NCBI GenBank assembly: GCA_964549615.1
Contig: CAZJVP010000021.1
Location: 1 to 14,719 of the forward strand
Reading direction: 5' to 3'
Length of the DNA: 14,719 nt
Source of the DNA: an uncultured Thermococci archaeon
GTDB lineage: Archaea; CAYQAE01; CAYVLA01
Shown here: piece after piece, positions 1,868 to 14,606 of the stretch
Layout of the letters: the number at the start of each line of letters is the position of its first letter
Position numbering within the stretch: the stretch's first letter is position 1
Program-made: the position numbers and the translations under genes
Notes under the pieces: model-generated
What the model saw: the letters and a program-made list of their open reading frames with translations, nothing else
The model's database searches: none
What the model was told of the DNA's origin: nothing

Positions 1868-2854
1868 CTACAGCAGCTTTGTCCTGAGTTCCTCGGGAGG
1901 TCTTGGGGATAAGTATGCCGCGGGGATATCGAAAACGGTCCTCGCGCCGATCTGGCCCTCCCTGTTCAGCCTGTATGCGGCCCTGGCATATGCCACCAGA
2001 ACATTCCCGGTGAACTCCGGGTTGCTGTCAAGTTTCAGCGCGAACTCCATCACATGTCTGTGATTTGCCCCGGTTGTCCCGGTTCTCAGGACGAACCCCC
2101 CATGGGGCATGCCTGAGTGCTTCGCTTTCAGCTCCTCTTGGGTGATGAATGTCACGCTCGTGTCGTAGTCCGCGAAGTAGTTGGGCATCGTCTGTATCTC
2201 GTGTCTTATTCTATCTAGATCCGCGCCGGTCTCGGCAACCACGTAGCATTCCCGTCGATGTCTTTCCCGGGGCGTCAGATCAGGGTTCTCGCCTGCCCGA
2301 ACTCTCTTGACCGCGGCTTCTATGGGGATGGTGTATTGCACTGCGTCCCTAACGCCCTCAATCCCACGTATGGCATTGGAATGTCCCTGGCTGACGCCCG
2401 GGCCCCAGAAGGTGTAATCCTTGCCGTTGGGCAACGACACCTCTCCGATCAGCCTGAGCAGCGAGAACAAGCCCGGATCCCAACCTACCGAAATCACGCT
2501 GGTTTTGCCGGCCCCCCTGGCTGCCTTGTCAACGGACCGGAAGTACTCCGAAATCTTGGCGTGGGTGTCGAAGCTGTCCACGGTGTTGAACATTGATGCG
2601 AACTTCGGACCCTGCTCCGGCAGGTCGGTGGCCGAGCCGCCGCAGAGGATGGCAACGTCCAGGTCATTGACGTGGTCCGCAATCCGGGATATGTGAAAAA
2701 CCCTAGAGGTTGGAAGCTGCGTCGCAAGTCTGGTGGAGGCCCTCCTCGTGAAGATGCCCCCCAGCGCCATGTCGGGATTCTGTTCCAGCGCAAGCTCAAC
2801 GCCCTTACCCACGTTGCCATAACCGATGATGCCGAGTCGTATCCGCTCGCCCAT
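1868..2854 (-). CDS. ddh: meso-diaminopimelate D-dehydrogenase (NADP-dependent, type A-like)
   Basis: 328 aa with Rossmann GYGNVG, FTRR, LCGGSATDLP, DSFDTHA, GWDPGLFS, YTFWGPGVSQGHS, AVQYT, MPNYF, GMPHGG and SNPEFT motifs, all diagnostic of Ddh. GGTGG RBS-like sequence upstream. Confidence 0.96.
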   Translation of the reverse strand: MGERIRLGIIGYGNVGKGVELALEQNPDMALGGIFTRRASTRLATQLPTSRVFHISRIADHVNDLDVAILCGGSATDLPEQGPKFASMFNTVDSFDTHAKISEYFRSVDKAARGAGKTSVISVGWDPGLFSLLRLIGEVSLPNGKDYTFWGPGVSQGHSNAIRGIEGVRDAVQYTIPIEAAVKRVRAGENPDLTPRERHRRECYVVAETGADLDRIRHEIQTMPNYFADYDTSVTFITQEELKAKHSGMPHGGFVLRTGTTGANHRHVMEFALKLDSNPEFTGNVLVAYARAAYRLNREGQIGARTVFDIPAAYLSPRPPEELRTKLL

Positions 2855-2949
2855 CGTGAACCACCATCCTCATCCTTGGCATCTTCGTGGCATCGCAGCC
2901 CCGATCCCAGTCCGAGCCAGGGATTTAGTCAGACTAGGGTACCCGGTCG

Positions 2950-2962
2950 GAAAAAGTTTTTC
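2950..2962. promoter_or_regulatory. AT-rich palindrome in divergent intergenic region (candidate promoter/operator)
   Basis: GAAAAA-G-TTTTTC between the divergent starts at 2854 (-) and 3002 (+). Confidence 0.35.
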
Positions 2963-3001
2963 TCCGGAGATCAGCCGGCCTCGCTTAGCCTGGCCGGATC
3001 C

Positions 3002-4228
3002 ATGAACGCTGAGGGAGTTGGTGGCACCGGTCGAACCGGTCGGTCGCCTGATTGGGCGGTCGCGTTCGTTATCTCCTTGCAACTGGCCCCACTGGTGCTG
3101 GGCGGGGTCGACGGCAGGAGGATTTCCTGTCTTGTGATCGGCGATTCCGTACAGGCTCCGTACAACCCATTTACCGCCCTCTTCGTGCAGGACCCGCTCT
3201 TCCGTTACGCCCTCTATCCACTTCCCCATCTTGGGGATGCTGAGAAAAGGAAGCTGGATCGGGTTTACTACCCGCGGACGTTCGAATCTCTTGTGGATAG
3301 CTACGACGTGATGATCTTCAGGGACGCCATGGTCAGCCATTTCAGTCCCGCCCAGTTCAGGGACTTGGAACGCGCGTTTCGAGAGGCCGGCATGGTGTCG
3401 GTCACTGTCCACAGCCTGTCCTGGAACGACGTCTGGGTGCCGACCGTACTCTACGACCTCTCCCCGATATCGGCGTATGATTTTCGCTTCTCTTTAACCT
3501 GGAGGGTGAGGTTCCGCAAGGACAGGGATCCGGTTTTCCTGCCCTTCGTCGAGCTTGGAATGGAGAAGGTCTCGGGCTGGGAGTACGGGGTGCCCGAGGC
3601 CAAGGAGGGGGCAACGATCTGGGCCGAAATGGTCCCGCCGGGATGTCCATGGCTGGTTTCCTGGAGGCCAGGCGGGAACAAGGCCGGCCTACAGTGGGTG
3701 TTTGCGGACAAATTCGATGTGACCTGGTGGGGGACGGCTCCAGGGGCCAGGGAAACCAACCCCTACGCGATCGATCTTGCGACAAACCTCCTTCTCTACT
3801 CCCTTGACAGGGCTCTGATCAGCGACATCCATGCCCGGAGGGAGGCGCGGCGGCTGCTGTCCACATTCCAGTCTAGGAAGATCCTCATCCTGTCGGTGCT
3901 CGACTGGGCCGAGAAGTTCGGGGCAAGCATCCTCGACCTTACCGATCGCCTCGCGGAACTCGAGCGTGAAGCTGGAACGGCTGTGGAGGACTACCTGGAT
4001 CAGGACTACGCCTCGACGATCCAGTTCATGGAGTCGATGTTGTCCGAGGCTGCCGAGATGACAGCCGCGGCACTGCAGAGGAAGGATCGGGCCCTGTACT
4101 GGGTGTACACCTCCGAATGGCTGTCGGTCACCTCGGCGAGCGTCTTGGGGGGAGCGATGGTCTGGAGCCTCATGGTCCGTAGGCGGAAGTACAGGGAGAC
4201 GGGGAGAACGAGGCTCCGGACCTGCTAG
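3002..4228 (+). CDS. membrane-anchored protein of unknown function (about 408 aa), possible class I glutamine-amidotransferase-like extracellular domain
   Basis: Part of the 2672-4228 ORF; start moved to ATG 3002 to avoid overlap with ddh. N-terminal hydrophobic segment WAVAFVISLQLAPLVLGG, alpha/beta region (ISCLVIGD...YYPRTFESLVDSYDVMIFRDA...ATIWAEM...PWLVSW), helical stalk, C-terminal TM (WVYTSEWLSVTSASVLGGAMVWSLMV) followed by RRRK. Fold assignment is tentative. Confidence 0.75.
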   Translation: MNAEGVGGTGRTGRSPDWAVAFVISLQLAPLVLGGVDGRRISCLVIGDSVQAPYNPFTALFVQDPLFRYALYPLPHLGDAEKRKLDRVYYPRTFESLVDSYDVMIFRDAMVSHFSPAQFRDLERAFREAGMVSVTVHSLSWNDVWVPTVLYDLSPISAYDFRFSLTWRVRFRKDRDPVFLPFVELGMEKVSGWEYGVPEAKEGATIWAEMVPPGCPWLVSWRPGGNKAGLQWVFADKFDVTWWGTAPGARETNPYAIDLATNLLLYSLDRALISDIHARREARRLLSTFQSRKILILSVLDWAEKFGASILDLTDRLAELEREAGTAVEDYLDQDYASTIQFMESMLSEAAEMTAAALQRKDRALYWVYTSEWLSVTSASVLGGAMVWSLMVRRRKYRETGRTRLRTC

Positions 4229-4473: not shown

Positions 4474-4872
4474 CTACTCCCAGATGCGTGACACCGTCTC
4501 AACTCGGTCGAAGTCCTTGTCGTTGGAGTAGATTTCGCTGACGCCGCTCCTCTGCATGATCTGAACCGAAAGAGCATCGACGTAGTCGATCTTGTGGCTT
4601 TCCATGCGGTCCAAGGCGGAGATCATATCGCTCCATGAGGCGCTTTCCTTTCTCAGGCTCGGATAGGAATTCACCGCCGTCAGGAAGGTCTTGACTTGGT
4701 CCCTTCGGTCGTTGTACTCCAGCCAATCGACAACCTCTTGGAGGACTGCGGTGCTGGTGATGGCTTCCTCGCCGTCTAGAATCCTCTGCATGATCTTACG
4801 CGATACTTCAAAGGACGCCCTCGGACGACCGGTTAGTAAAAAGATGAAGACGTTGGCGTCAACGAACCTCAT
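4474..4872 (-). CDS. vapC: VapC-family PIN-domain toxin
   Basis: 132 aa with FVDANVFI, TSTAVLQEV, DYVDAL and IYSNDKDFD, giving the four acidic PIN catalytic residues. ATGA overlap with the antitoxin. Confidence 0.93.
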   Translation of the reverse strand: MRFVDANVFIFLLTGRPRASFEVSRKIMQRILDGEEAITSTAVLQEVVDWLEYNDRRDQVKTFLTAVNSYPSLRKESASWSDMISALDRMESHKIDYVDALSVQIMQRSGVSEIYSNDKDFDRVETVSRIWE

Positions 4873-5138
4873 CTGGCGACCCTCGAGGTCTTCTTCTCGA
4901 TCCTCATTGCGGCAGCCTTCCTTGCCTCGTTCTTCGGCTCGCCCCTGCCCCCGATTTCTCTCACGAGTCCGCTCAGCATTTCGATCGGGTTCGCCACAGT
5001 CTTCTCGGGGGACAGCACCAGTTGGCCCGCTCTCACTGCGAGCGTGAGCGTATCGCCCTCTTTGATGGCCAGCCGTTCCCTAATCTCAAGGGGGATTGTG
5101 ATCTTGCCTTTTTGAAGCACCTTCACCTGGGTACTCAT
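4869..5138 (-). CDS. vapB: AbrB/MazE/SpoVT-family antitoxin
   Basis: 89 aa with VKVLQKGKITIPLEIRERLAIKEGDTL swapped-hairpin signature, directly upstream of the PIN toxin. Confidence 0.92.
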   Translation of the reverse strand: MSTQVKVLQKGKITIPLEIRERLAIKEGDTLTLAVRAGQLVLSPEKTVANPIEMLSGLVREIGGRGEPKNEARKAAAMRIEKKTSRVAR

Positions 5139-5140
5139 TC

Positions 5141-5188
5141 GGGTTACCCAAATTGGATATCCAAAAAGATAACCCTTAAATGTTACCC
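5141..5188 (-). promoter_or_regulatory. vapBC promoter with palindromic operator sites
   Basis: TATA-like TTTAAG on the minus strand at 5180-5175; perfect palindrome TTGGATATCCAA at 5153-5164; GGGTTACCC at 5141-5149; GTTACCC repeated at 5182-5188. Confidence 0.6.
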
Positions 5189-5367
5189 CGCCTCAGCCCG
5201 AACGACGCGTTGAGGTCTCTGCCCCGGTCTCCGGGCAGCGGCCCTCCAACCTCTTCTTTATTCGGCACCATCACGTTGTGGAGAGTCTCTTCTCGCTAGG
5301 CTGTGGCGTGCGGCCTCCTCGAGCTTTCTACCCTGACACTGATACGGAGCGATTATGCAACCAGCGG

Positions 5368-5469
5368 GTCCAGGTTAAGTCCAAATCCTCGTTCAAATCC
5401 GAGTTCAAGTCGAAACCGAAGTACAGAGCGTGGTCGAGACCCAAGGTCAAGCGCCAGACTAGCATCTAG
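5368..5469. repeat. degenerate hexamer-periodic tract
   Basis: gtccag gttaag tccaaa tcctcg ttcaaa tccgag ttcaag tcgaaa ccgaag tacaga ... cccaag gtcaag cgccag; loose consensus TYCAAR. Confidence 0.5.
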
Positions 5470-5660
5470 GTCTCCGCATCCCATCGGAGGCCTTAGGCTA
5501 GCTAGAAAGGATGTATGAGAGGCTTCCAAGCCTTCTTGCCATATTGGAGCAGAGAGGCCTGGACCCATCCCAGACATTATCCGAAGCCCTAACCCAGAGC
5601 TGGAACGAGACCTGCTCACACGACCAGACCAACCAAGGCGCGAGCCAAAACGCACCGCCG

Positions 5661-5674
5661 GAATCAAATTTAAG
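5661..5674 (+). promoter_or_regulatory. putative BRE/TATA of ppcA
   Basis: GAATCAAATTTAAG with TTTAAG at 5669-5674, about 25-35 nt upstream of TTG 5698 / ATG 5707. Confidence 0.5.
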
Positions 5675-5706
5675 CAGAGAGTGGCCCACGAGCAAGATTG
5701 TTCGAA

Positions 5707-7278
5707 ATGGAGCGAAAGATACCTCACACGATGTCGACCCAACACCCGGACAACGCTCGTTCTCCGTCTTGGTGCGCAAACAGCGTAGTGTCAGGCGAAG
5801 ACGAGGTCACGGAGGCATGCTTTGCATACAGCGAGATGGGTTGCGAAGAGGTGATGTGGGACTCGGAAGGAAAAGACGTTGACACTCGCGTCATCCGAAA
5901 GATGTTAAGCAAGTCCCCCGATTACTTCGAGGAGAACGTCATCGGTAGGGATATCTTTCTCACGTACAGACTCCCTAACCCTAGGACCGAAGTCTCGGAA
6001 AGAAAAGTGGTCTTGGAGACTCTCTTCAACATACCGGTCGCCGCTGACGTTGCATCAAGTTTCTACGGAAGGGAGGTTGAACCGATCTTCGAGGTGATCC
6101 TTCCGTTTACAACATGCGCAGAGGACCTCACACGACTGCACGACTGCTACGTCAAGGGCGTTTCCGGGTTCGCAGATATCCCGTTGAACGGGTCATCAAC
6201 CATCGCCGACTGGGTTGGCTCCATAAGACCACGTGACATTCAAGTGATCCCTCTCGTCGAGGATATGGACAGCCTTCTGAAGATCGACAGGATAGTCGCG
6301 CCGTATCTGGATGCCGTCAGGCCTCCGTATCTGCGGGTTTTCTTGGCTAGGTCGGATCCGGCCCTCAACTACGGGATGTTTGGCGCGGTCATACTCTCGA
6401 AGATTTCGATATCTAAGCTTTCGACCCTTGCTGAGGAACGTCGGATTGAGATGCATCCGATCATCGGGGCGGGTTCGATGCCCTTCAGGGGTCATCTCTC
6501 ACCTGAGAACGTCTCGCGCTTCCTTGAAGAATATCCAGGCATTAGCACAGTCACCATCCAATCAGCATTCAAGTACGATTACGACCTCACCCAGGTACGA
6601 AGGGCGATTCGCACTCTTAACCGAAGGCTTCCGACCGAAGATCCCCAAACGCTATCCCGCGACGAGGAGACAGCCTTGGAATCGGTCGTGAAGAAGCTCA
6701 TGGCCGGCTACCAGAGTACCGTGGAAAAGCTGGCCCCCCTGATAAACAGCGTAGCTCGGTACGTGCCTCCCCGCAGGGCAAGGAAGCTTCACATAGGTCT
6801 ATTTGGATATAGCAGGACCGTCAGGGGCATAGCCCTGCCAAGAGCAATCCCCTTTGCCGCGGCACTTTACTCGATCGGATTGCCCCCCGAGTTCATCGGT
6901 GCACGGGTGCTTTCCGATCTCAGCGAGGATGAGTGGGAGCTCCTTAAGAAATGCTACGCGAACATGAAGCATGACCTGACTCACGTCTCCCAGTACCTCT
7001 CTTGGAGAAACCTGCAGATGATCGGAGACATGCACTCGGAGGTCGCCAGGAGGGCTTGTATGAGCGATCAAGATCTGGAATGCGCACTTGGGCAGCTCTC
7101 AGTCGACTTGGGCGTCGTTGAGAAGAACTTGGGTGTCAAGCTTGGACCAAGGAATCTTGCCCAAAGGAAGTACGAGAACATCCTCTGCAACTTCCTCATC
7201 GCCTACATCGAGAGAGAGGATCAGGAAGCCGAAGCCAATCTGGTCCGTGCAGCCGTTCTCAGGAAATGCCTAGGCTAG
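5707..7278 (+). CDS. ppcA: archaeal-type phosphoenolpyruvate carboxylase
   Basis: IPHTMSTQHPDNA (catalytic His), EVMWDSEGKDVD, EVILPFT, VIPLVED, RVFLARSDPALNYG, GAGSMPFRG, TIQSAFKYD, RKLHIGLFGYSR, LPRAIPF and C-terminal R..LG motifs. Start is ATG 5707 or in-frame TTG 5698. Confidence 0.96.
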   Translation: MERKIPHTMSTQHPDNARSPSWCANSVVSGEDEVTEACFAYSEMGCEEVMWDSEGKDVDTRVIRKMLSKSPDYFEENVIGRDIFLTYRLPNPRTEVSERKVVLETLFNIPVAADVASSFYGREVEPIFEVILPFTTCAEDLTRLHDCYVKGVSGFADIPLNGSSTIADWVGSIRPRDIQVIPLVEDMDSLLKIDRIVAPYLDAVRPPYLRVFLARSDPALNYGMFGAVILSKISISKLSTLAEERRIEMHPIIGAGSMPFRGHLSPENVSRFLEEYPGISTVTIQSAFKYDYDLTQVRRAIRTLNRRLPTEDPQTLSRDEETALESVVKKLMAGYQSTVEKLAPLINSVARYVPPRRARKLHIGLFGYSRTVRGIALPRAIPFAAALYSIGLPPEFIGARVLSDLSEDEWELLKKCYANMKHDLTHVSQYLSWRNLQMIGDMHSEVARRACMSDQDLECALGQLSVDLGVVEKNLGVKLGPRNLAQRKYENILCNFLIAYIEREDQEAEANLVRAAVLRKCLG

Positions 7279-7649
7279 ATCCGCCAGCGAGCCTTCACAT
7301 TACGGAAACGACGGGAACGGTTGGTCTGCGAAGGCATCCCCATCGGAGATACGCTGCAGTTGCCGATTGGGCGTCTGCCATGTATCGAGGGGGCACTTGA
7401 GTTCCTTGTGGGACTCGGCAGTCTTTTCGGTCGATTGCGGGTACAAGGCTCCTAGGTTGTTGGTGTTGTGAGCCATGTCGAAGTGCGCTGTAGGGATTCC
7501 GCAGGCCGGGTCAGCGAGGGGCCCTGGATCATGCACGGGGACATTTTGGGACTCGCAGGATCCCGGTGATCTGCCAGTTCGAAGAATTCCGCGGGGACGA
7601 GTCACAGCTCAGTTGGCACCCATTATGGAATCCCTCGCGGAATGCTGGT

Positions 7650-8696
7650 TCATGCCAATCGAAGGTACTTGACGGAGATCACTCTAATATAGTCAGCGGT
7701 GTTTTCGCAGGCATCCGCGAGGTCCTCAAGCCTCATAATGACCTCATTGACCACGAAAAATGAGGCCGCATCCAGCAGCTGCGACTCTCTGAGCAATCGC
7801 TTCACAAGGTTTCTACGGAGACCGTCCACATGGTCCTCCAGCTGGGATACCAGGTCGGACAGATCCTCGGCCGCGACAAGATCGGTGTTGAGTTGCGTAA
7901 CCGCTGCGGATAGTGTTTCCACCGTCTCGGCGACCGCCTCTGCCAGTTCCCGTAGGCCTGGAACCACTGCGCTTGGGAAGTGGTACTCCTCTGCAAGCTC
8001 GAGTCTGTAGGCGAGGGCCTTCGCCGCCGTGCCGATGTGTCTTATGTGGTAGACAAGGTTCAGCAAATCGGCCCTGTCCTCGGGCAGGAGTTGCGACTTG
8101 GTTATCACCTCCAGAGCCCGGACGGCCAGCGCATCGGCCTCGTTCTCCAGCTTAATCGTGCGGGATGCTTCCTCCTCCATGGTAGCAAGGTCACCCTTGA
8201 GGAAGTCTTGCACGGCCCTGTGCATGACGCGGACGACCTCCAGAGTCCGTTGCATGCGCTGGCTCACGAGCTCGTAGACGTCCCTTTGCGTCTTCTCTCC
8301 AAGCCATGCTCGACCACGGACTCGGGCTTTCAGCAGCTTCTCCCTCTTTTCCGCGATCGCGTGGGTCTCGTAGTCATCCTTTGCCGTTTCGGGACACATC
8401 CTGACACCGCTGTAATACCCTGCTCTTCCGATGGCATGCGAGCTTATCGGTGCGGTGAGGAATAGGAAGATGACCGACAGTAATATCTTTGCCCCTGAAG
8501 CGACGCTGGGGCCCATGAGCAAGGAGCCCACCGCGACTCCGCCGATGCCCAGTGTAACCACCTTCGAACTGGCATGTAGCCTCGTATACAGATCGGGAAA
8601 CCGGATAATCCCCAAGCTTCCGGCGAAGGTGAAAAAGCATCCTAGGAGAATCAGCGCCACGCCCGCGGCGTCTAGCAATAGGCTGGCCAAGCTCAT
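7650..8696 (-). CDS. mrpG: Mrp/Mnh subunit G fused to a C-terminal DUF47/PhoU-like domain
   Basis: aa 1-110 are MrpG (GIIRFPDLYTRLHASSK, LTAPISSHAIGRA). aa about 131-348 form a two-repeat helical DUF47-type domain (LENEAD...PEDRADLLNL; LEDHVD...LEDLADACENTAD). Single 348-aa ORF with ATGA overlap with mrpF. Confidence 0.88.
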   Translation of the reverse strand: MSLASLLLDAAGVALILLGCFFTFAGSLGIIRFPDLYTRLHASSKVVTLGIGGVAVGSLLMGPSVASGAKILLSVIFLFLTAPISSHAIGRAGYYSGVRMCPETAKDDYETHAIAEKREKLLKARVRGRAWLGEKTQRDVYELVSQRMQRTLEVVRVMHRAVQDFLKGDLATMEEEASRTIKLENEADALAVRALEVITKSQLLPEDRADLLNLVYHIRHIGTAAKALAYRLELAEEYHFPSAVVPGLRELAEAVAETVETLSAAVTQLNTDLVAAEDLSDLVSQLEDHVDGLRRNLVKRLLRESQLLDAASFFVVNEVIMRLEDLADACENTADYIRVISVKYLRLA

Positions 8697-8953
8697 TCCA
8701 GCTCTCCCTCCAAGAACCTCGCGATGAGTAGGACGGCCACGAAGGAGACGAGGGTCAGAGGCACGAGGGCCTCGAGAAACACAGGGTCTTGCCTCATCCC
8801 AAGAATGATGAAGATTGCTATTGAGATGGAATTGATGGTCCCATATGCCATGAGTTGATCGGCCGCCGAGGGACCTCTAGCCAACCTGATGATGCAGAGG
8901 GAGACCGATATGAACAGAACTGCGAGGCAGATCCACGCCACTAGGTCGATCAA
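8693..8953 (-). CDS. mrpF: Mrp/Mnh subunit F
   Basis: 86 aa, 3 TM, RLARGPSAAD and SFVAVLLIARFLE; lies between E and G; TTG start overlaps the mrpE stop. Confidence 0.87.
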   Translation of the reverse strand: MIDLVAWICLAVLFISVSLCIIRLARGPSAADQLMAYGTINSISIAIFIILGMRQDPVFLEALVPLTLVSFVAVLLIARFLEGELE

Positions 8954-9450
8954 CCGAACACCCTCGAAAGGATGCGCTCGTATCTGCCAGCTATCATGCG
9001 TTTCACCTCGTCCAGAGATTCCGACCTTATCGTTATCCAGTGAACGTACATAGTCTTCGATCTCTCATCTAGATCCAGGAAGAAGGTGCCTGGGGTCAAG
9101 GTGATGGAGTTGGCCAGAAGGGTCAGCTCCCATCGCTTTGAGAGATGGGTCTTTATCCCGACGACCCCGGGTCTTATCGCCAGTTCTCGCTTGAGGACGA
9201 TCCCTGTGACGAAGACTCCTGCCTTTACGACCTCCTTTATCAGGACCAGAAGATACAGCAACATGAACCCCCATCTCCTCGGGTCCAGCATCTTTCTTGC
9301 CGGTCCTTCGAATGCATAGGTTCCGAAGAACCAGCCGAGGGGCACACAGATCATGAGCCCGGCGAGGAGGAAGTCCACATCCGTTGTTGGCGCTAGCAAT
9401 GCCCAGACCGCGTAGGACAAGGCCCCACAAGCAAGACATCTGCCTTTCAT
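8950..9450 (-). CDS. mrpE: Mrp/Mnh subunit E
   Basis: 166 aa with IRPGVVGIKT, LLANSITLTPGT, MYVHWI and YERILSRVF motifs. Confidence 0.93.
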   Translation of the reverse strand: MKGRCLACGALSYAVWALLAPTTDVDFLLAGLMICVPLGWFFGTYAFEGPARKMLDPRRWGFMLLYLLVLIKEVVKAGVFVTGIVLKRELAIRPGVVGIKTHLSKRWELTLLANSITLTPGTFFLDLDERSKTMYVHWITIRSESLDEVKRMIAGRYERILSRVFG

Positions 9451-10914
9451 TCAGATCCCCAACATCGCGGTGATTGCGACCAGCCTGTCCATCATCTGGG
9501 CAGCGACCGTCTTCGATGCCCCGAGTATGGCCCATCCGGCCATGCCCAATGCAATACAACCGAGGGTCAGGATCGATGTTGGCACCTTCATTAATATTGG
9601 TAGATCGGCCGGCGAAATGAAGGCTGGCTCCGAAGAAATCATGCTCTGAATGACGCGTAGGTATGCGGCTGCGGTGATCAAGATTGCGACCGCCAAGACG
9701 ACCAGTGCGATCGAGTTGGTCTCAATAAGCCCCAAGAACAGGTAGACCTTGCTCAGGAATCCCAATGATGGACCGCCGATGTCCGCAACTGAACCGACGA
9801 CGAATGCGATGCAGATGCCTGGCATCAGGGTCCAGGCTCCCTTCATCTTCCCGAACTCCCTCCTGGAAAAGGAGTGGACGAGGCAACCAGCAGACATGAA
9901 GAGCAAGGCCTTCGCCGTGGCATGGTTCATGATACTGAGAACGAGGGATTGGAAGCCTACCATGCTCTGCATGCTCAGCAGGACGACTGAGAACCCGTTG
10001 CTGCTTATCGTCGTGTAAGCAAGAAGCCTCTTGATGTCGGTCTGGCATAAGGCCAATATCGATCCGAAGAGGGCAGTGGCAAGCCCCAGCCAGGGAAGGA
10101 GCGCGGCCGCCCTGAATGACTCAAGTCCCACCGATTGGTGTAGGATCCGGATCATGGCATAAATACCGACCTTCCCCGATGCTCCCGACAAAAGCGCGCT
10201 TACGGCCGTTGGAGCACTCCAGTAGGCATCAGGCACCCAGGTGTGAAGCGGGAATATGGCTGACGTCATCCCAATGCCAATGAGGACCATAAGCATGGCG
10301 AACTCGAGGGCTGCGTCTGCCCCCTGCTGTCTAAGGAACATGCCGATGGCGCCGAGGTTGAGGCTTCCGACCCGATCATAGATCATCACGATGCCGACGA
10401 GGAAGAACAGGCCCGAGAGGGTACTCAATATGACATACTTGATGGACGCCTCAATCTCCTCCGACCCACCCAGAAACGCGACCAGTACACAAGTCGAGAT
10501 GGCACTCAGTTCCATGAACACGAAAAGGTTGAAGAGATCCGTGGCCATAGCTACTCCATTCATGCCCGCTACGAGGAAGTACACGGCCGAGTGGAGCTTG
10601 GATAGGGCTCTTCCCCGCGCTTCGTCGATGCTGAAGACCAGGGCCAGTAACGCAAGGGAAAGGATGATCAGCATTACCAAGCTCCCCATAGCGTCGGAGA
10701 TGAGACCGAGCCCCAAGCCGACCTGCCAGTTGCCTATGCGGTGGATCAACACCTCGCCTTTCCAGGTCTCTCTGAGAATGAACAAGCTGCTTGCACCCAT
10801 CGAGCAACCGACGCCGGCAAGCAAGCAAAGGAGTGCGCGTCTTGAACTCCCAGTGAGTAGACTGACGAGTCCGCCCGTCAGAGGTATGACTATCATGAGG
10901 GGCAGTGCGATCAA
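9451..10914 (-). CDS. mrpD: Mrp/Mnh subunit D (antiporter-like, NuoN/M homolog)
   Basis: 487 aa with IGNW, DLFNLFVFMEL (TM5 Glu), EASIKY, PLHTWVPDAY..AP..SALLSG...KVGIYAMIR, DIKRLLAY, NHATAKALLF and GFLSK. TTG start overlaps the mrpC stop. Confidence 0.92.
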   Translation of the reverse strand: MIALPLMIVIPLTGGLVSLLTGSSRRALLCLLAGVGCSMGASSLFILRETWKGEVLIHRIGNWQVGLGLGLISDAMGSLVMLIILSLALLALVFSIDEARGRALSKLHSAVYFLVAGMNGVAMATDLFNLFVFMELSAISTCVLVAFLGGSEEIEASIKYVILSTLSGLFFLVGIVMIYDRVGSLNLGAIGMFLRQQGADAALEFAMLMVLIGIGMTSAIFPLHTWVPDAYWSAPTAVSALLSGASGKVGIYAMIRILHQSVGLESFRAAALLPWLGLATALFGSILALCQTDIKRLLAYTTISSNGFSVVLLSMQSMVGFQSLVLSIMNHATAKALLFMSAGCLVHSFSRREFGKMKGAWTLMPGICIAFVVGSVADIGGPSLGFLSKVYLFLGLIETNSIALVVLAVAILITAAAYLRVIQSMISSEPAFISPADLPILMKVPTSILTLGCIALGMAGWAILGASKTVAAQMMDRLVAITAMLGI

Positions 10915-11252
10915 CCCTGAAGTCTCCTTAGTGCCCTCGTGTCCGTGTCTCCCGTCGCGTTGAAAACCCTCATCGCAAGAGACAGCATAAACATCGTCAA
11001 GCCGAATTCGATGACGATGGCCGTGAGAACGAAGGCCTGAAGCAGGGGATCCACCACCGTTGCTCCGAGAGGCGGAACCGGAGCGCTTGCGCCTCGAACG
11101 TAGCCGAGTTGGACGAATAGCAGATTCACCCCACAGCCTGAGATCGAAAGACCGAAGATGATCTTGATCAGATCTCTGTTGGACAGCACGCAGTAGACGC
11201 CGATCATGACGAGGAGGAAGGATAGCACGTACGGTAGGGTTGATAGGTCCAT
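10911..11252 (-). CDS. mrpC: Mrp/Mnh subunit C (NuoK homolog)
   Basis: 113 aa from ATG 11252 (GGAGGAG 8 nt upstream): IGVYCVLSNRDLIKIIFGL, GVNLL, DPLLQAFVLTAIVI, RRLQG. The track's 253-aa ORF is over-extended. Confidence 0.9.
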   Translation of the reverse strand: MDLSTLPYVLSFLLVMIGVYCVLSNRDLIKIIFGLSISGCGVNLLFVQLGYVRGASAPVPPLGATVVDPLLQAFVLTAIVIEFGLTMFMLSLAMRVFNATGDTDTRALRRLQG

Positions 11253-11254
11253 CG

Positions 11255-11668
11255 TCAAGACTCCTCCGTTATGCCGAGCATCTCTCCTAGGGCAATGATC
11301 ATCTCGCTCCCGACGAGGGCACCAATGACGAGTCCGAGAAACACGAGACCCGGGGAGGCAAGAAGCGTTCCTGCGCCCGCCAGCATTGCCGTCTCTAGGA
11401 AGCGTCCCGTGACCGCTAGGGTGACGCAGGACGCGGCGGTCAACAGCCCAAAGGCCAAGTTCCTCACACTTACGACCCATCGCACTCTGGTGAAGAAACC
11501 GATTCCCTTCTCCTCCGCCACAATCATAAGGCAGACGGCCACTCCAGCAACGACTCCCCCAGCAAAGGCCCCGCCTGGGGACTGGACCCCGGTGACAACC
11601 AAGTAACACGCGTAAACCATGATCAAGGGGCTCAGAAGCTTGCAGACAGTCCTGACGGGCAGGGACAA
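11255..11668 (-). CDS. mrpB: Mrp/Mnh subunit B (MbhF-like)
   Basis: 137 aa hydrophobic protein with SPGGAFAGG (PGGGF-type motif). TTG start 8 nt after GGAGG. Confidence 0.85.
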   Translation of the reverse strand: MSLPVRTVCKLLSPLIMVYACYLVVTGVQSPGGAFAGGVVAGVAVCLMIVAEEKGIGFFTRVRWVVSVRNLAFGLLTAASCVTLAVTGRFLETAMLAGAGTLLASPGLVFLGLVIGALVGSEMIIALGEMLGITEES

Positions 11669-12193
11669 TCATGTTGCCTCCTTCACTTTCTTCGTGACAA
11701 CAGCGATACCGAGGATGGAGACGAACAGCACGCAGACCTCGCCGAGGGTATCGTAGGCCCGGAATCCAAGCAGGATGGCCGTGACAAGGTTGCTGCTTCC
11801 CGTCTCCGACCTTCCCGAATCAGCATACTTGCTCACGAGTTCAGGCGCCTCTCCACCGAAAGGTGACAGGGCCGGAGCCACGAAAGCTGCAAAGATCAAC
11901 AGGGCTAATGCCAGGGACAGCGCAACTAGCATCCTTATGCGACGTGGTTCTACCGCCACGGCAACCCTGTGGGTCTTGGCGACGACGAGGACAAGGATGC
12001 AGGTCTTGATGACCTCCGTGACCATCTGGACAACGCCGAGATCAGGTGCCCGGAGGGCGAAGTAGCTGCAGGAGATGAAGAAGCCAACGGCTCCTAGGCA
12101 TACCGCAGACGACAGAAGGTCCTTGAGACGGAGGACTAGGACGGAGCAGGCGATAGCAGATGCGAGGGCGAAGAGGTGAAAGAGTTCAATCAA
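11669..12193 (-). CDS. MrpA C-terminal module as a separate gene (DUF4040/MbhD + MbhE-like), 174 aa
   Basis: LKDLLSSAV, LRAPDLGVVQMVTE and NLVTAILLGFRAYDTLGE motifs. Start reassigned to TTG 12193 (TTGA overlap, GGAGGTG upstream) rather than ATG 12289. Confidence 0.85.
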   Translation of the reverse strand: MIELFHLFALASAIACSVLVLRLKDLLSSAVCLGAVGFFISCSYFALRAPDLGVVQMVTEVIKTCILVLVVAKTHRVAVAVEPRRIRMLVALSLALALLIFAAFVAPALSPFGGEAPELVSKYADSGRSETGSSNLVTAILLGFRAYDTLGEVCVLFVSILGIAVVTKKVKEAT

Positions 12194-13947
12194 CCCGCGC
12201 CACCTCCAAGAACGAAGAGCATGCCGCCAACCCAGAGGGCAAGAACGTATGCGACGTAGTCCCGAGTGTTTCCAGAGGCCATCATACATAGGAGGCCGGC
12301 CGCTCGTAGTACAAGGCCCGCCATGCCCTCGAAGAGCCGGTCAAAAAACATCTCCTCCCGGGCCAGCAGCACTATTCCTCCGAAAACGCCCTTGGAGCAG
12401 AGTGCGTAGGCTTCCCGTCTTTTCACCCACACGCCCAGCGCCAGCATCGATGCCAGGTACCCGAGAGTGGTTGTCCATGCTGGCTCCAGGGCCGACGGGA
12501 CGGGAGTGGTCTCGCCGGCCGGGTGGAGGGCAGAATCGATGGTCCTGATCACCCCGGGATGAAGAAACCCAAGTGCCAGACACAGAACTGCCAGGATTGC
12601 GCACGCGGCGATCACGGCCCGGCCAGCCTTCCGATCGCCCTCCCGACGACCACTGCCCCAGAAGAGGTACCAGCCCAGCCTCATGAAGGAGAGGAGAGTC
12701 AGCACCCCGACGAAAATCGACAGACCAGCCAGGGCCGGGAACCGTGCTGCCACGGCCTTTGCGACTATCGACTTGCTGTAGAACCCATTGAAAGGAGGGA
12801 TTCCAGACACGGATAGCAAGCCGACGGCGTAGAAAGGCAAGATCGCCCGGGCATGCCCGCCGATTCTGGAGCGTGCAAGCGCCAGGTCTCTCGTTCCCGC
12901 GGACGACATCGCCCACCCAGCAGACAAGAAGAGAAGTGCCTTGAAGAGACTGTGATTCAGCAAATGCATGGTTGCGCCCGTCGCTCCCTGTGGGGTTCCA
13001 AGGCCAAGCCCCATGAAGATCAAGCCGACCTGGGAAATTGTGCTCATAGCAATGAGCCGCTTCCCGTCCATCTGAAAGAGGGCAAGGAAGACCCCAACGT
13101 AGGCGGTGACCAGTCCGAGGGGCACCACGAAATTGGAGAAGGCTTCCGGCACGGAGCCGAGGATGTGGAAGAACCTGATCATTCCGTATACGCCGGTCTT
13201 GACCACGATGCCGGATAGGAGGGCGCTTATGGGAGTCGGGCTTTCGGAGTGGGCATCCGGAAGCCATATGTGGAAGGGCACAACCGCAGCATCGATGCCA
13301 AAACCGAGGAAGGCGATGGCGGTGAAGACGATGCGAGCAATGGAAGAGCGGAACCCGATCAGGCCGCCCTCAGCCATGTCAGAGGTTCCCGTTTCCGCGA
13401 GGGCTATTGCCACCGATACGATCAGCAGGACGGCCGCTCCCTGGGCCATGATGAAGTACTTCCTGCCCGCTGCCCCGGCGGAGGATTCTCCGGAGTGAAC
13501 AATGAGCATGTAGGAGATAACCACCATCAGCTCCCAGAAGAACATGAGAAGCACCATGTCGGATGAAAGGAATATGCCGTTAAGGGCCGAGCAAAGGACC
13601 AGAATTGAGCAGAAGTACCTGCCTGGATGCATGCCTGCATCCGGATAGGAACCGGACACGATAGAGGACACCAAGCAGAGGAATGAGCTGAGGAGAGCAA
13701 GGATGACGCCTAAAGCGTCGGCATTGAGACGCAGTGCTGGCGACCCGTTCGTGGCCAGCGCAACCCGAATGGGGCCCTGATCCAGAACCCTGAGGCAAAG
13801 ACATAGAGCCGTTACGGTCGTGACCGCAAGAAACGCGGCGGCCAAAGGAAGGACGGATCGGCGAGCCACCCTGGAGGCACCGGCAGCTATCAAGGACCCG
13901 ACCGATGGCAAGCTCACCAGAAGAATCGGAAGGACAGTCCACTCCAC
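12190..13947 (-). CDS. MrpA N-terminal / NuoL-like antiporter subunit
   Basis: 585 aa with FFWELM (TM5 Glu), AGRKY, PFHIWLPDAHSESPTPISALLSGIVVKTGVYG, NHSLFKALLFL, GIPPFNGFYSK, and a lateral-helix-type tail (FFDRLF...SGNTRDY). GTG start with GAGGA upstream. Confidence 0.9.
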   Translation of the reverse strand: MEWTVLPILLVSLPSVGSLIAAGASRVARRSVLPLAAAFLAVTTVTALCLCLRVLDQGPIRVALATNGSPALRLNADALGVILALLSSFLCLVSSIVSGSYPDAGMHPGRYFCSILVLCSALNGIFLSSDMVLLMFFWELMVVISYMLIVHSGESSAGAAGRKYFIMAQGAAVLLIVSVAIALAETGTSDMAEGGLIGFRSSIARIVFTAIAFLGFGIDAAVVPFHIWLPDAHSESPTPISALLSGIVVKTGVYGMIRFFHILGSVPEAFSNFVVPLGLVTAYVGVFLALFQMDGKRLIAMSTISQVGLIFMGLGLGTPQGATGATMHLLNHSLFKALLFLSAGWAMSSAGTRDLALARSRIGGHARAILPFYAVGLLSVSGIPPFNGFYSKSIVAKAVAARFPALAGLSIFVGVLTLLSFMRLGWYLFWGSGRREGDRKAGRAVIAACAILAVLCLALGFLHPGVIRTIDSALHPAGETTPVPSALEPAWTTTLGYLASMLALGVWVKRREAYALCSKGVFGGIVLLAREEMFFDRLFEGMAGLVLRAAGLLCMMASGNTRDYVAYVLALWVGGMLFVLGGGAG

Positions 13948-13988
13948 GGGGGTTTCCTCGCGGGGTGCTGGGTCGGCGGATGCTTTCC

Positions 13989-14002
13989 TGATAAATCTAT
14001 GG
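13989..14002 (-). promoter_or_regulatory. putative TATA element of the mrp operon
   Basis: Minus strand CCATAGATTTATCA with TTTATC at 13995-13990, about 45 nt upstream of GTG 13947. Confidence 0.4.
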
Positions 14003-14012
14003 TCTGTCCCTA

Positions 14013-14337
14013 TGCCTGTGCGTGTTAGGTAAAGGGACGTATGTTACGCTTTTCCGCCTTCCCGCTCCGGCGGCCTTCCACCGAGCAATCAAGTTTGGTA
14101 TGCCCATCGATGCACAGGACTTCGAACAAGACATTCGGGAGGCGGGTTGAGTCCTTTCTCTCCTCCGGGGAGGAAAAAACCTCAGGAGGCCAGTCCACCC
14201 ATTCGAGACACTTGCTCACGGGCCGGGGGCCGTCACTTCCCCTAACTCCTCGGACTCAGGCACGGAGAGTGCTCTGCAGAGTGTAACATGTGTGGGTCTA
14301 CCCAACGGGTCTGTGCCTGTGCGTGTGTGCGCGCGTG
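14013..14337. repeat. 13-bp direct repeat pair with an alternating purine-pyrimidine tract
   Basis: TGCCTGTGCGTGT at 14013-14025 and 14314-14326, each with GGTCTGT just upstream. 14318-14337 TGTGCGTGTGTGCGCGCGTG is strictly alternating. Confidence 0.6.
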
Positions 14338-14487
14338 ACGGGTCGAAGGCCTTTGAGGCAGAGCCCTAAGCAAGAGATCTTTCTGCTCGTCGGAGCTTCA
14401 GCCGCAGCCCTTGTCGAGATTTCGGCTCGACCTTCAGCAGCCCCACCAGTCTTTCCTCCTTCCACACCCCAAGAAAACCCGCTCCGT

Positions 14488-14508
14488 ACCGTAGACCGTA
14501 GACCGTAG
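14488..14508 (+). repeat. perfect heptamer tandem repeat (ACCGTAG)x3
   Basis: ACCGTAG ACCGTAG ACCGTAG, preceded by a partial CCGT. Confidence 0.9.
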
Positions 14509-14509
14509 G

Positions 14510-14524
14510 CGAAAAAGACTTAAG
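14510..14524 (+). promoter_or_regulatory. BRE/TATA promoter of alba
   Basis: CGAAAAAGA followed by CTTAAG (14519-14524); GGAGGT RBS at 14595-14600 before ATG 14607. Confidence 0.6.
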
Positions 14525-14606
14525 TTCGTAGTTTCAACCGCTGGTTGCCGGATGGTTTCCGGACGATGCATCGGTACAGACAAGTATACAGAACGGAGGT
14601 AGCAGC

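Follow-up and report, generated by a model that had tools for sequence, protein, structure and literature searches.

An Mrp-type operon with an MrpG–DUF47 fusion and relocated membrane charges in an uncultured archaeon

Does an Mrp complex that carries a PhoU-like domain on one of its subunits, and that has lost charged residues on which current mechanisms depend, still exchange cations for protons? The question is raised by an operon on an archaeal contig of 14,719 bp (contig C21), the whole of which was analysed and is referred to as the window; it belongs to a 3.2-Mb genome (G000) that is 99.5% complete. Eight packed genes on the minus strand (13947–7650, here g1–g8) cover every Mrp subunit type from A to G by Pfam and NCBIfam, in the order MrpA-N-like, MrpA-C, MrpB, MrpC, MrpD, MrpE, MrpF, with MrpG–DUF47 last. 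MrpA is thus encoded as two genes, g1 (A-N-like) and g2 (A-C), and the reading frames of all eight genes are intact. Mrp is presumed to be ancestral to the membrane arms of complex I, of MBH (a membrane-bound hydrogenase) and of MBS (a membrane-bound sulfane sulfur reductase), and current mechanisms rest on pairs made up of a Glu in transmembrane helix 5 (TM5) and a Lys in TM7 and, for Mrp, on an Asp of MrpF. The original prediction, made from the sequence of this contig, had described a stand-alone, DUF47-coupled Mrp with substitutions at ion-path residues, either gated by phosphate or metal status or moving another solute. Our analysis suggests, with a probability of about 0.55, that the operon encodes a functional stand-alone Mrp-type (CPA3) cation/proton antiporter, a lineage-specific variant with a built-in PitR-like cytoplasmic regulator.

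The MrpG–DUF47 fusion

The domain composition of g8 was established by profile searches. The MrpG family (PF03334) matched residues 15–94 (8415–8654) with 91.2 bits, and the DUF47 family (PF01865, also DUF47/PhoU_div, of PitR type) matched residues 140–342 (7671–8279) with 81.7 bits against a cut-off of 24.4, spanning model positions 9–213 of 214. The MrpG part also passed the curated NCBIfam cut-offs (94.1 bits versus 63.1 for TIGR01300 and 112.8 versus 102 for NF009314); the TIGR00153 score of g8 was 57.2, under that model's cut-off of 104.3. Between the two domains lies a basic linker helix (approximately residues 109–133), which is conserved among fused homologues.

An AlphaFold2 model of g8, built on an alignment of 19 sequences, contained a confident six-helix domain at approximately residues 135–347, with a predicted local distance difference test score (pLDDT) mostly of 84–97 over residues 141–340. 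The top Foldseek matches of this C-terminal domain were the PhoU-like structures 2iiu, 3l39 and 2olt (TM-scores 0.84–0.85), and the N-terminal part of g8 matched MrpG of a solved Mrp complex (7qru_G) with a TM-score of 0.74. When aligned with nine stand-alone DUF47 members, g8 was found to keep the acidic motifs LE.EAD, E...D and LE..AD..E. By profile, fold and motifs, the domain belongs to PF01865.

When 5.8 billion proteins were searched with a word index, 18 clusters of several sources were obtained that aligned across 96–100% of the query at 44–90% identity, and both Pfam domains were present in 18 of the 18, bearing out the fused domain of the original prediction. In an alignment of these clusters the MrpG core was invariant, as were many residues of the DUF47 part. 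Run exhaustively over 1.84 billion cluster representatives, HMMER gave a single protein below 1e-30, itself a fused form of 345 amino acids with 49% identity; among the 150 matches listed, 1 spanned both domains and 149 matched one half only. Seven fused loci were present among the 80 metagenome contigs kept, and the fusion reads continuously on at least 9 loci. Among the fused proteins two subgroups are distinguished, the window's family (subgroup I, 68–90% identity) and subgroup II, represented by loci L027 and L029 (44–49% identity, 44% G+C). Five species of the window's phylum were available in the genome collection, and the full-length fusion was found in four of four from one family and was absent from the fifth; for that fifth genome (G004) the window query recovered no MrpD relative either, an empty result of this search that weighs little. 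The closest fused gene in the databases comes from two genomes, which NCBI lists as Candidatus Hadarchaeota archaeon metagenome-assembled genomes. The MrpG–DUF47 fusion is therefore genuine, rare and conserved.

Automatic annotations label the homologues "antiporter subunit G" or, for two of them at JGI, "predicted phosphate transport protein (TIGR00153 family)". No published description of an MrpG–DUF47 fusion was found in the literature searched, most subscription journals lying outside its scope; the original prediction likewise knew of none. In an Mrp review that was searched, the MrpA–MrpB fusion is the only one named (PMC5703873).

Ion-path residues and their distribution among relatives

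For the residue map, each subunit was aligned to the solved Mrp, MBH and MBS chains, with numbering of the reference positions as in Bacillus pseudofirmus (PMC9568556); residues of g2 are counted from the longer open reading frame (ORF) at 12289. Residue tallies were taken from query-anchored HMMER alignments, in which columns in looser regions are less reliable; the TM7 column lies 6–8 residues before the well-conserved PxHxWLPDAH motif and hence should be reliable. The background loci were gathered via an MrpG pattern and form a non-random sample of Mrp diversity. By alignment to solved chains and by tallies of clade versus background, charge or residue changes were found in six genes out of eight (A-N, A-C, B, C, D and F), in agreement with the claim that most subunits carry substitutions.

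The TM5 Glu/TM7 Lys pairs of MrpA and MrpD have been termed strictly conserved (PMC9568556). In the window this pair is incomplete in both antiporter-like subunits, the Glu being kept and the Lys lost. In g1, TM5 Glu139 (13533–13531), TM8 Lys250, TM11 His332 and Lys336 and TM12 Lys392 are all present, and the canonical TM7 Lys (Lys223) is replaced by Asp219 (13293–13291). The 13 best homologues have Asp (12) or Glu (1) at this position, and Lys was counted in 104 of the 129 aligned rows overall. The MrpA His248 switch position in TM8 is occupied by Ser245, and a clade-specific Lys397 has been gained in addition to TM12 Lys392. MrpD likewise keeps TM5 Glu135, TM8 Lys248, TM11 His331 and Lys335, Phe339 and TM12 Lys389, and has Thr217 (10266–10264) in place of Lys219 when aligned with 7qru_D. 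Across 120 MrpD homologues, the best 15 have Pro (12), Thr, Ala or Val at this position and the other 105 have Lys. A further Asp has been gained in the TM12 region of MrpD (Asp378, 9783–9781), present in 15 of 15 clade sequences versus Ile in 92 of 105 background sequences; Asp180 is clade-specific as well.

In MrpA-C, alignment with 7qru_A and 6z16_A showed that Asp83 (= Asp678), Glu92 (= Glu687, 12016–12014) and Glu184 (= Glu780) are kept and that Val87, Thr170 and Gly175 stand at the positions of Thr682, Asn766 and Asp771; Gly at the Asp771 position was seen in 2 of 40 background rows. Three residues past the key Glu, a Lys has been gained (Lys95, 12007–12005), which is found in five of five distinct subgroup-I sequences versus Ser in 29 of 33 background sequences. 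MrpB retains the gate Phe (Phe35 = Phe41), and Val28 (11587–11585) replaces His34, the local sequence being GVQSPGGAF versus GHxxPGGGF in five solved homologues, all with His. In the background this MrpB position is His (9 of 11) or Glu (2 of 11).

The TM3 of MrpC contains a new membrane-embedded Glu (codon 11009–11007), reading VIEFG versus VISFG in Bacillus, where the residue is Ser80. It is present in all fused operons; the 42 background rows have Gly (33), Ser (5), Ala (1), Glu (1, locus L030) or gaps (2). In TM2 of MrpC, Cys and Asn occupy the positions of Bacillus His37 and His40. MrpF keeps Asp32 and has Gln (8857–8855) for Arg33 and Gly (8842–8840) for Asp38. The five solved homologues all read DR...D, and DQ..G was found in every subgroup-I locus; among 60 background rows, position 38 is Asp in 49, Asn in 10 and Gly in 1, and Arg33 is present in 59. 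The two remaining subunits are canonical in their motifs, as the original prediction had it for frames and structural motifs: MrpE keeps the NSITLTPGT motif and His137, both invariant in its alignment, and the MrpG membrane domain keeps loop His41, TM3 Pro83 and PD..R.H. Judged from these alignments, the charge changes are real and clade-conserved. Because both TM7 lysines and the MrpF Asp, which the structural papers call strictly conserved, are missing, the complex would be better described as a variant than as a plain Mrp.

Whether the substitutions follow the fusion, a check proposed with the original prediction, was examined by comparing the window with both fused subgroups and with an unfused operon (Table 1). 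The latter, L030, has an MrpA-N of P0301/P0303 type and is like the window in its split-A gene order, and its MrpG is 53% identical to that of the window over residues 15–125. Unlike the window's, this MrpG stops after the linker (130 amino acids), with no DUF47 in the 1.9 kb downstream; L030 also differs in having Lys in TM7 of MrpA-N, Gly for the TM8 Lys, and in retaining the MrpB His, MrpF Arg33 and the Asp771 equivalent. Co-segregation of the substitutions with the fusion as a block was rejected, since unfused L030 shares three of them (a non-Lys residue in MrpD TM7, the MrpC Glu and a residue other than Asp at MrpF position 38). A single change, the acidic residue in MrpA-N TM7, tracks the fusion exactly. 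Those at MrpB His34, MrpF Arg33, MrpA-C Gly175 and Lys95 and MrpD Asp378 are confined to subgroup I.

Table 1. Residues at ion-path positions in fused and unfused operons
Position	Subgroup I (fused)	Subgroup II (fused, L027)	L030 (unfused)
MrpA-N TM7	Asp	Glu	Lys
MrpD TM7	Thr/Ala/Pro	Val	Val
MrpC TM3	Glu	Glu	Glu
MrpF position 38	Gly	Asn	Asn
MrpF Arg33	Gln	Arg	Arg
MrpB His34	V/I/A	His	His
Asp771 equivalent	Gly	Asp	Asp
MrpA-C position 95	Lys	Thr	Met
MrpD position 378	Asp	Ile	Ile

Two further changes were rejected as clade-specific: Ser at the His248 position also occurs in MbsH' and in most of the nearest homologues, and Thr at the Asn766 position also occurs in MBH and MBS. These two are ordinary for archaeal complexes, and the acid in TM7 has a precedent in E219 of MbsH (PMC7684303).

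A tree of the large subunits was built from 40 hand-picked rows (21 ORFs from the loci and 19 database proteins); it is unrooted, includes several long branches and carries support from the Shimodaira–Hasegawa-like approximate likelihood ratio test (SH-aLRT) only. In both paralogue subtrees L030 grouped with fused subgroup II as its sister (SH-aLRT 99), and subgroup I formed its own clade (100). From this sister relationship, the fusion would have been lost once after a single origin or gained twice; the shared conserved linker would favour a single fusion origin. In one relative (G002, locus L015), the orthologue of g1 at 4568–6508 is read as two ORFs of 192 and 439 amino acids, which may reflect a frameshift, an assembly error or a genuine split.

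Selection was assessed from ratios of nonsynonymous to synonymous substitution rates (dN/dS, omega). Pairs with dS above approximately 1.5 were saturated, and reliance was placed only on pairs with dS of 0.4–0.6. For the window versus L026 (dS 0.42–0.47), omega was 0.195 for the fusion gene and 0.25 for MrpF; for L024 versus L015 (dS 0.47–0.56), it was 0.075 for MrpF and 0.18 for MrpD. Over the comparisons, values ranged from 0.04 to 0.25. The fusion and the charge changes are maintained by purifying selection across a small clade, and the contrary case raised with the original prediction, substitutions private to this genome under relaxed selection, is excluded.

Operon, flanks and genome

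The coordinates of the operon and its flanks are given in Table 2. Gene content and order of the tightly overlapping operon were as originally described, with two starts corrected. The start of g2 is most likely the TTG at 12193 and not the ATG at 12289, as its TTGA overlaps the g1 stop and the N termini of orthologues agree; MrpC starts at the ATG at 11252, the codon at 11261 reading GTC, which is no start. Overlaps of 4 nt occur at the g1/g2, g4/g5, g6/g7 and g7/g8 junctions, g2/g3 and g5/g6 abut directly, and g3/g4 are separated by 2 nt. The g1 start is GTG, with a GAGGA motif 6–12 nt upstream. The NCBIfam MrpA model NF009287 aligned to residues 16–578 of g1 and the NuoL model TIGR01974 to residues 8–542, and its C-terminal tail is homologous to the lateral helix/TM16 region.

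Table 2. Coordinates of the Mrp-type operon and its boundaries in the window
Feature	Position	Strand	Evidence
g1, MrpA-N-like, 585 aa, NuoL/MrpA-type C-terminal tail	12190–13947	-	PF00361, 1.2e-52
g2, MrpA-C (TM17–21 equivalent), MbhD + MbhE domains	11669–12193	-	PF13244 + PF20501
g3, MrpB (MnhB)	11255–11668	-	PF04039
g4, MrpC, NuoK-like	10911–11252	-	PF00420
g5, MrpD	9451–10914	-	PF00361, 4.9e-54
g6, MrpE (MNHE)	8950–9450	-	PF01899, 1.1e-34
g7, MrpF	8693–8953	-	PF04066
g8, MrpG–DUF47 fusion, 348 aa	7650–8696	-	PF03334 + PF01865
ppcA, archaeal-type phosphoenolpyruvate carboxylase, convergent; operon boundary, not member	5698–7278	+	PF14010, 7.6e-175
alba, divergent, first 37 codons only, then contig end	14607–14719	+	PF01918, positions 1–34
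mrp–alba intergenic region, 659 bp	13948–14606		sequence inspection

The boundaries set by a divergent alba and a convergent ppcA were confirmed, with the qualification that alba is truncated by the contig end; the fragment scored 24.4 bits against PF01918, for which the cut-off is 25. This truncated alba and a site on another contig (C44:42523–42624) score identically in Pfam, which would fit either a contig overlap at an assembly break or two alba copies. A TTTAT-containing stretch approximately 45 nt upstream of the g1 start is a candidate promoter, assigned by eye. The intergenic region also holds a 16-nt direct repeat, CTRTGCCTGTGCGTGT, at 14010–14025 and 14311–14326, 301 nt apart, which may be due to chance. 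No Rfam match was obtained for the whole window at gathering thresholds, and the small ORFs of the 659-bp upstream region and of 7300–7605 belonged to no Pfam family. The remaining genes of the window encode a PMT_2 glycosyltransferase, a diaminopimelate dehydrogenase, a 518-amino acid ORF and a PIN/MazE pair. The pair lies at 4474–5138 on the minus strand, in which a gene for a PIN-domain (VapC-like) toxin follows a MazE/AbrB-type antitoxin gene and overlaps it by 4 nt. The 518-amino acid ORF (2672–4228, plus strand) had no Pfam match, and its 5' end overlaps the opposite-strand diaminopimelate dehydrogenase gene by approximately 180 nt; it is either real with a later start or spurious.

Pfam and NCBIfam identified no hydrogenase or NuoB/C/D/H/I gene within the window. 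Nor was any NuoH-like anchor, NuoB/C/D/I-like or hydrogenase gene present beside the operon in L015, L027 or L030, and no neighbour gene was conserved across these three contexts and the window, so that the context points to no partner. The description of the operon as stand-alone therefore holds.

When the eight window proteins were searched with phmmer against all ORFs of the genome, no second Mrp operon was recovered and all other matches fell on contig C104. That contig carries a group-4 energy-converting [NiFe]-hydrogenase-type cluster at approximately 77.3–85.5 kb (L103 5377–13515) with its own Mrp-like module, in the order MNHE-like, an unassigned small ORF, MnhG-like, MbhD, NuoK-like, PF00361 and MbhE–MnhB, followed by a 13-repeat polyferredoxin, a NuoB-like gene and a NuoD/NiFe large-subunit-like gene. 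Three common antiporter families, PF00999 (CPA1/2), PF03553 (NhaC) and PF06965 (NhaA), gave no match in this 99.5% complete genome; as controls, the same profiles matched in 13, 7 and 3 of 14 reference genomes, respectively. The window Mrp appears to be the sole recognisable cation/proton antiporter of the genome among the families tested.

No PHO4 (Pit) gene is present in the window. The genome has three stand-alone DUF47 genes, two of them directly downstream of a Pit gene, at C104:107.7–109.4 kb (L104) and C20:103.8–105.5 kb (L106). The third, on C45 (L105 4135–4821), adjoins genes for DUF790 and a LonB-like protease and not Pit. No stand-alone DUF47 of this genome exceeds 26% identity to the fused domain. 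In two relatives, the stand-alone copy closest to it (35–38% identity; G001:C16:22068–22736 and G002:C1:59369–60037) shares a contig with the fused gene, 13–17 kb downstream of it. In a search of sequencing runs, one DNA run labelled hot springs metagenome contained the whole stretch and may be its source, and a second run contained a small share (0.16).

Probable function and comparison with known systems

In Anoxybacillus flavithermus Mrp, Steiner and Sazanov proposed that cations enter at the cytoplasmic MrpE/MrpG tip and pass via the MrpF Asp to the key Glu of MrpA-C; the MrpF variant D35L (= Asp38) was inactive, and Ser80 of MrpC was named as one of the residues that coordinate the cation in the coupling cavity (PMC7419157). 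In the Bacillus structure and in simulations, a second cytoplasmic Na+ route to Glu687 was seen, which is direct, more hydrophobic and independent of Asp38 (PMC9568556). As for the fused domain, PF01865 (PitR) proteins regulate phosphate homeostasis together with Pit, acting as cytoplasmic accessory regulators and not as carriers; in Staphylococcus aureus the Pit–DUF47 pairing is regulatory, and the PhoU domain fused to NptA contributes to regulation (PMC13170248).

In the reading that we prefer, an antiporter with its own regulator, MrpG would have three TM helices with the TM1–TM2 loop (RFPDLYTRLH) cytoplasmic, as in the solved complexes, and the basic linker after TM3. From this topology and the linker we infer that the PhoU-like domain lies on the cytoplasmic face at the MrpE/F/G tip, where it would hang beside the proposed cation entry. 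By analogy with PitR–Pit and NptA–PhoU, it could act as a built-in regulator that opens, closes or reports ion flux in response to a signal from the cytoplasm; phosphate or a metal/phosphate species, bound at the conserved ExxxD motifs, would be the likeliest one. The ion path would have been remodelled and not destroyed, given what remains of it: in MrpA-C the key Glu and the Glu780 equivalent at the exit, in MrpB the gate Phe, and in the large subunits the TM5 Glu with the TM8, TM11 and TM12 residues. The lost TM7 lysines may be functionally replaced by relocated charges (the A-N TM7 Asp, the MrpC TM3 Glu, Lys95 and the MrpD TM12 Asp), and cations might reach the retained key Glu by the direct route of the Bacillus simulations. 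Coupling or affinity would then differ from that of Bacillus Mrp, and the likeliest substrate would still be a monovalent cation (Na+ or K+). Since the three common antiporter families are absent from the genome, the window Mrp probably still exchanges a cation for protons, and this exchange possibly balances the ion gradient made by the C104 hydrogenase.

Several observations weigh against this reading. Residues called strictly conserved or essential are missing (both TM7 lysines and MrpF Asp38; compare the inactive D35L), and the changes could mean another substrate, another coupling or the loss of transport. In most clade relatives, the TM8 Lys of MrpD is also replaced, by Gln. The linker of the AlphaFold2 model is of low confidence (pLDDT below 50 over residues 83–129), and the position of the DUF47 domain relative to MrpE and MrpF is inferred only. 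To our knowledge, PitR function is known only in conjunction with Pit, in bacteria, and works partly through a two-component system. Finally, no RNA run containing the stretch was listed in the sequencing-run search.

The main rival, which we consider possible but doubtful, is a change of substrate or stoichiometry: the complex would carry another cation (e.g. Ca2+, Mg2+, Mn2+ or K+) or exchange ions for protons in another ratio, and through the PitR-like domain this flux would be linked to phosphate or metal-phosphate status. With Lys lost and Glu gained, the MrpD/MrpC/MrpA-C cavity would be more acidic. The charge map is conserved in the clade and includes a Glu/Asp pair in MrpA-N, the new MrpC Glu stands at the cation-coordinating Ser80 position (PMC7419157), and some Mrp complexes carry K+ or Ca2+, Ca2+/H+ activity having been recorded for the Mrp of Thermomicrobium roseum (PMC5703873). 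Pit, the usual partner of DUF47, adjoins two DUF47 paralogues in this genome. On the other hand, Lys95 beside Glu92 partly offsets the added negative charge in subgroup I, and Na+/K+ handling would go unserved, since the genome shows none of the three common antiporter families; we also know of no residue pattern diagnostic of a divalent-cation Mrp. In its boldest form, the same proposal makes the complex an ion valve under the control of phosphate status, with a rebuilt path for a different cation or number of ions per proton that is coupled to phosphate or metal-phosphate by the PitR-like domain at the entry. This we likewise hold only tentatively, as the less likely account; it adds that a functional tie would exist between the regulator and the acidic TM7 residue of MrpA-N, a position at which the fused subgroups have Asp or Glu and the unfused sister has Lys.

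A lower probability still is given to the complex being a sensor of membrane potential or ions that signals via the PhoU-like domain, or a membrane arm for a soluble partner encoded elsewhere. The loss of both TM7 lysines and MrpF Asp38, held to be essential for transport, would fit such a role, as would the action of PhoU-family proteins as signalling adaptors in bacteria (PMC13170248) and the reuse of Mrp modules in MBH and MBS (PMC7684303). Yet most of the core of the proton and cation paths is kept and conserved, in four contexts neither the operon nor its surroundings include a NuoH-like anchor or a redox gene, and the C104 hydrogenase cluster has an Mrp-like module of its own. Eight genes of approximately 2,100 codons under purifying selection would also be costly for sensing alone.

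Transport of phosphate or another anion, which the original prediction had entertained, is very improbable. It draws on the association of DUF47 with phosphate transporters (PMC13170248) and on the JGI phosphate-transport annotation of two homologues, and on nothing else; nothing in the sequence suggests an anion path, DUF47/PitR is a soluble accessory regulator rather than a permease, the membrane core has on balance become more acidic, opposite to what an anion path needs, and two Pit genes, each with a DUF47 of its own, are already present in the genome. Least probable of all is decay or chance, that is, a pseudogenised Mrp or a fusion created by an assembly artefact: apart from the g1 orthologue read as two ORFs in one relative, the sequence data speak against it, from eight intact frames, a fusion continuous in 18 clusters of several sources and dN/dS of 0.04–0.25 to the conservation of the substituted positions (Asp219 in 12 of the 13 best matches, Asp378 in 15 of 15, Gln33/Gly38 in all subgroup-I loci).

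As a conserved natural variant without both lysines and the Asp, the complex makes it possible to test which residues are really required and in what ways coupling can be rewired. If flux of an altered kind were indeed controlled by phosphate status, the complex would be a natural working counter-example to the indispensable TM5-Glu/TM7-Lys pair in subunits of the Mrp/complex-I type. If the domain is merely regulatory and the complex an ordinary Na+/H+ antiporter, it would still be a new regulated Mrp subtype. The fusion extends PhoU-fold accessory regulators from phosphate importers (Pst, Pit and NptA) to an ion-gradient machine, and it suggests that phosphate homeostasis and Na+/H+ energetics are linked in this thermophilic archaeal lineage, which has barely been studied.

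Compared with the group 1 Mrp complexes (CPA3) of B. pseudofirmus (7QRU) and A. flavithermus (6Z16), the window has the same seven subunit types in the order A to G, with identities of roughly 30–45% in aligned stretches. Shared with them are the TM5 Glu, the TM8/TM11/TM12 Lys/His/Lys, the Glu687 and Glu780 equivalents, MrpB Phe41, the MrpE TLTPGT motif with its His, and PD..R.H with the Pro in MrpG. The window differs in that MrpA is split, with an A-N that is MrpD-like in TM8 (Ser at His248), and in that MrpG has an additional PhoU-like domain of 220 residues.

The Pyrococcus furiosus complexes MBH (6CFW) and MBS (6U8Y) gave the best or near-best Protein Data Bank matches of MrpD (6cfw_H), MrpC (6u8y_G) and MrpF (6cfw_B). 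They share the split of MrpA-C (MbhD/MbhE domains) and the Thr at the Asn766 position, and MbsH', like g1, is a subunit that bears the lateral helix and lacks the TM8 His. Unlike them, the window operon has no NuoH-like anchor and no NuoB/C/D/I-like or hydrogenase subunit, and its genes run from A to G where those of MBH and MBS begin with E-F-G. The acidic TM7 residue is in the subunit that bears the lateral helix and the MrpD-type subunit is neutral, whereas in MBS the reverse applies; MbsH has an acidic TM7 residue, E219, and is still regarded by its authors as a proton pump (PMC7684303). MBH and MBS also keep the MrpF Asp and the MrpB His, both of which are changed in the window.

The profile, fold (2iiu, 3l39 and 2olt) and acidic motifs of PitR (PF01865) regulators are all matched by the g8 domain. 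Unlike PitR, this domain is covalently fused to an Mrp subunit and is not encoded beside Pit, and no PhoPR-type partner has been demonstrated in the archaeal context, where a two-component system was not searched for. With NptA the window shares a PhoU-fold regulator that is built into the polypeptide of a secondary transporter; NptA differs in its PhoU subfamily (PF01895 versus PF01865), in its transporter family and in its substrate, phosphate versus a presumed cation here.

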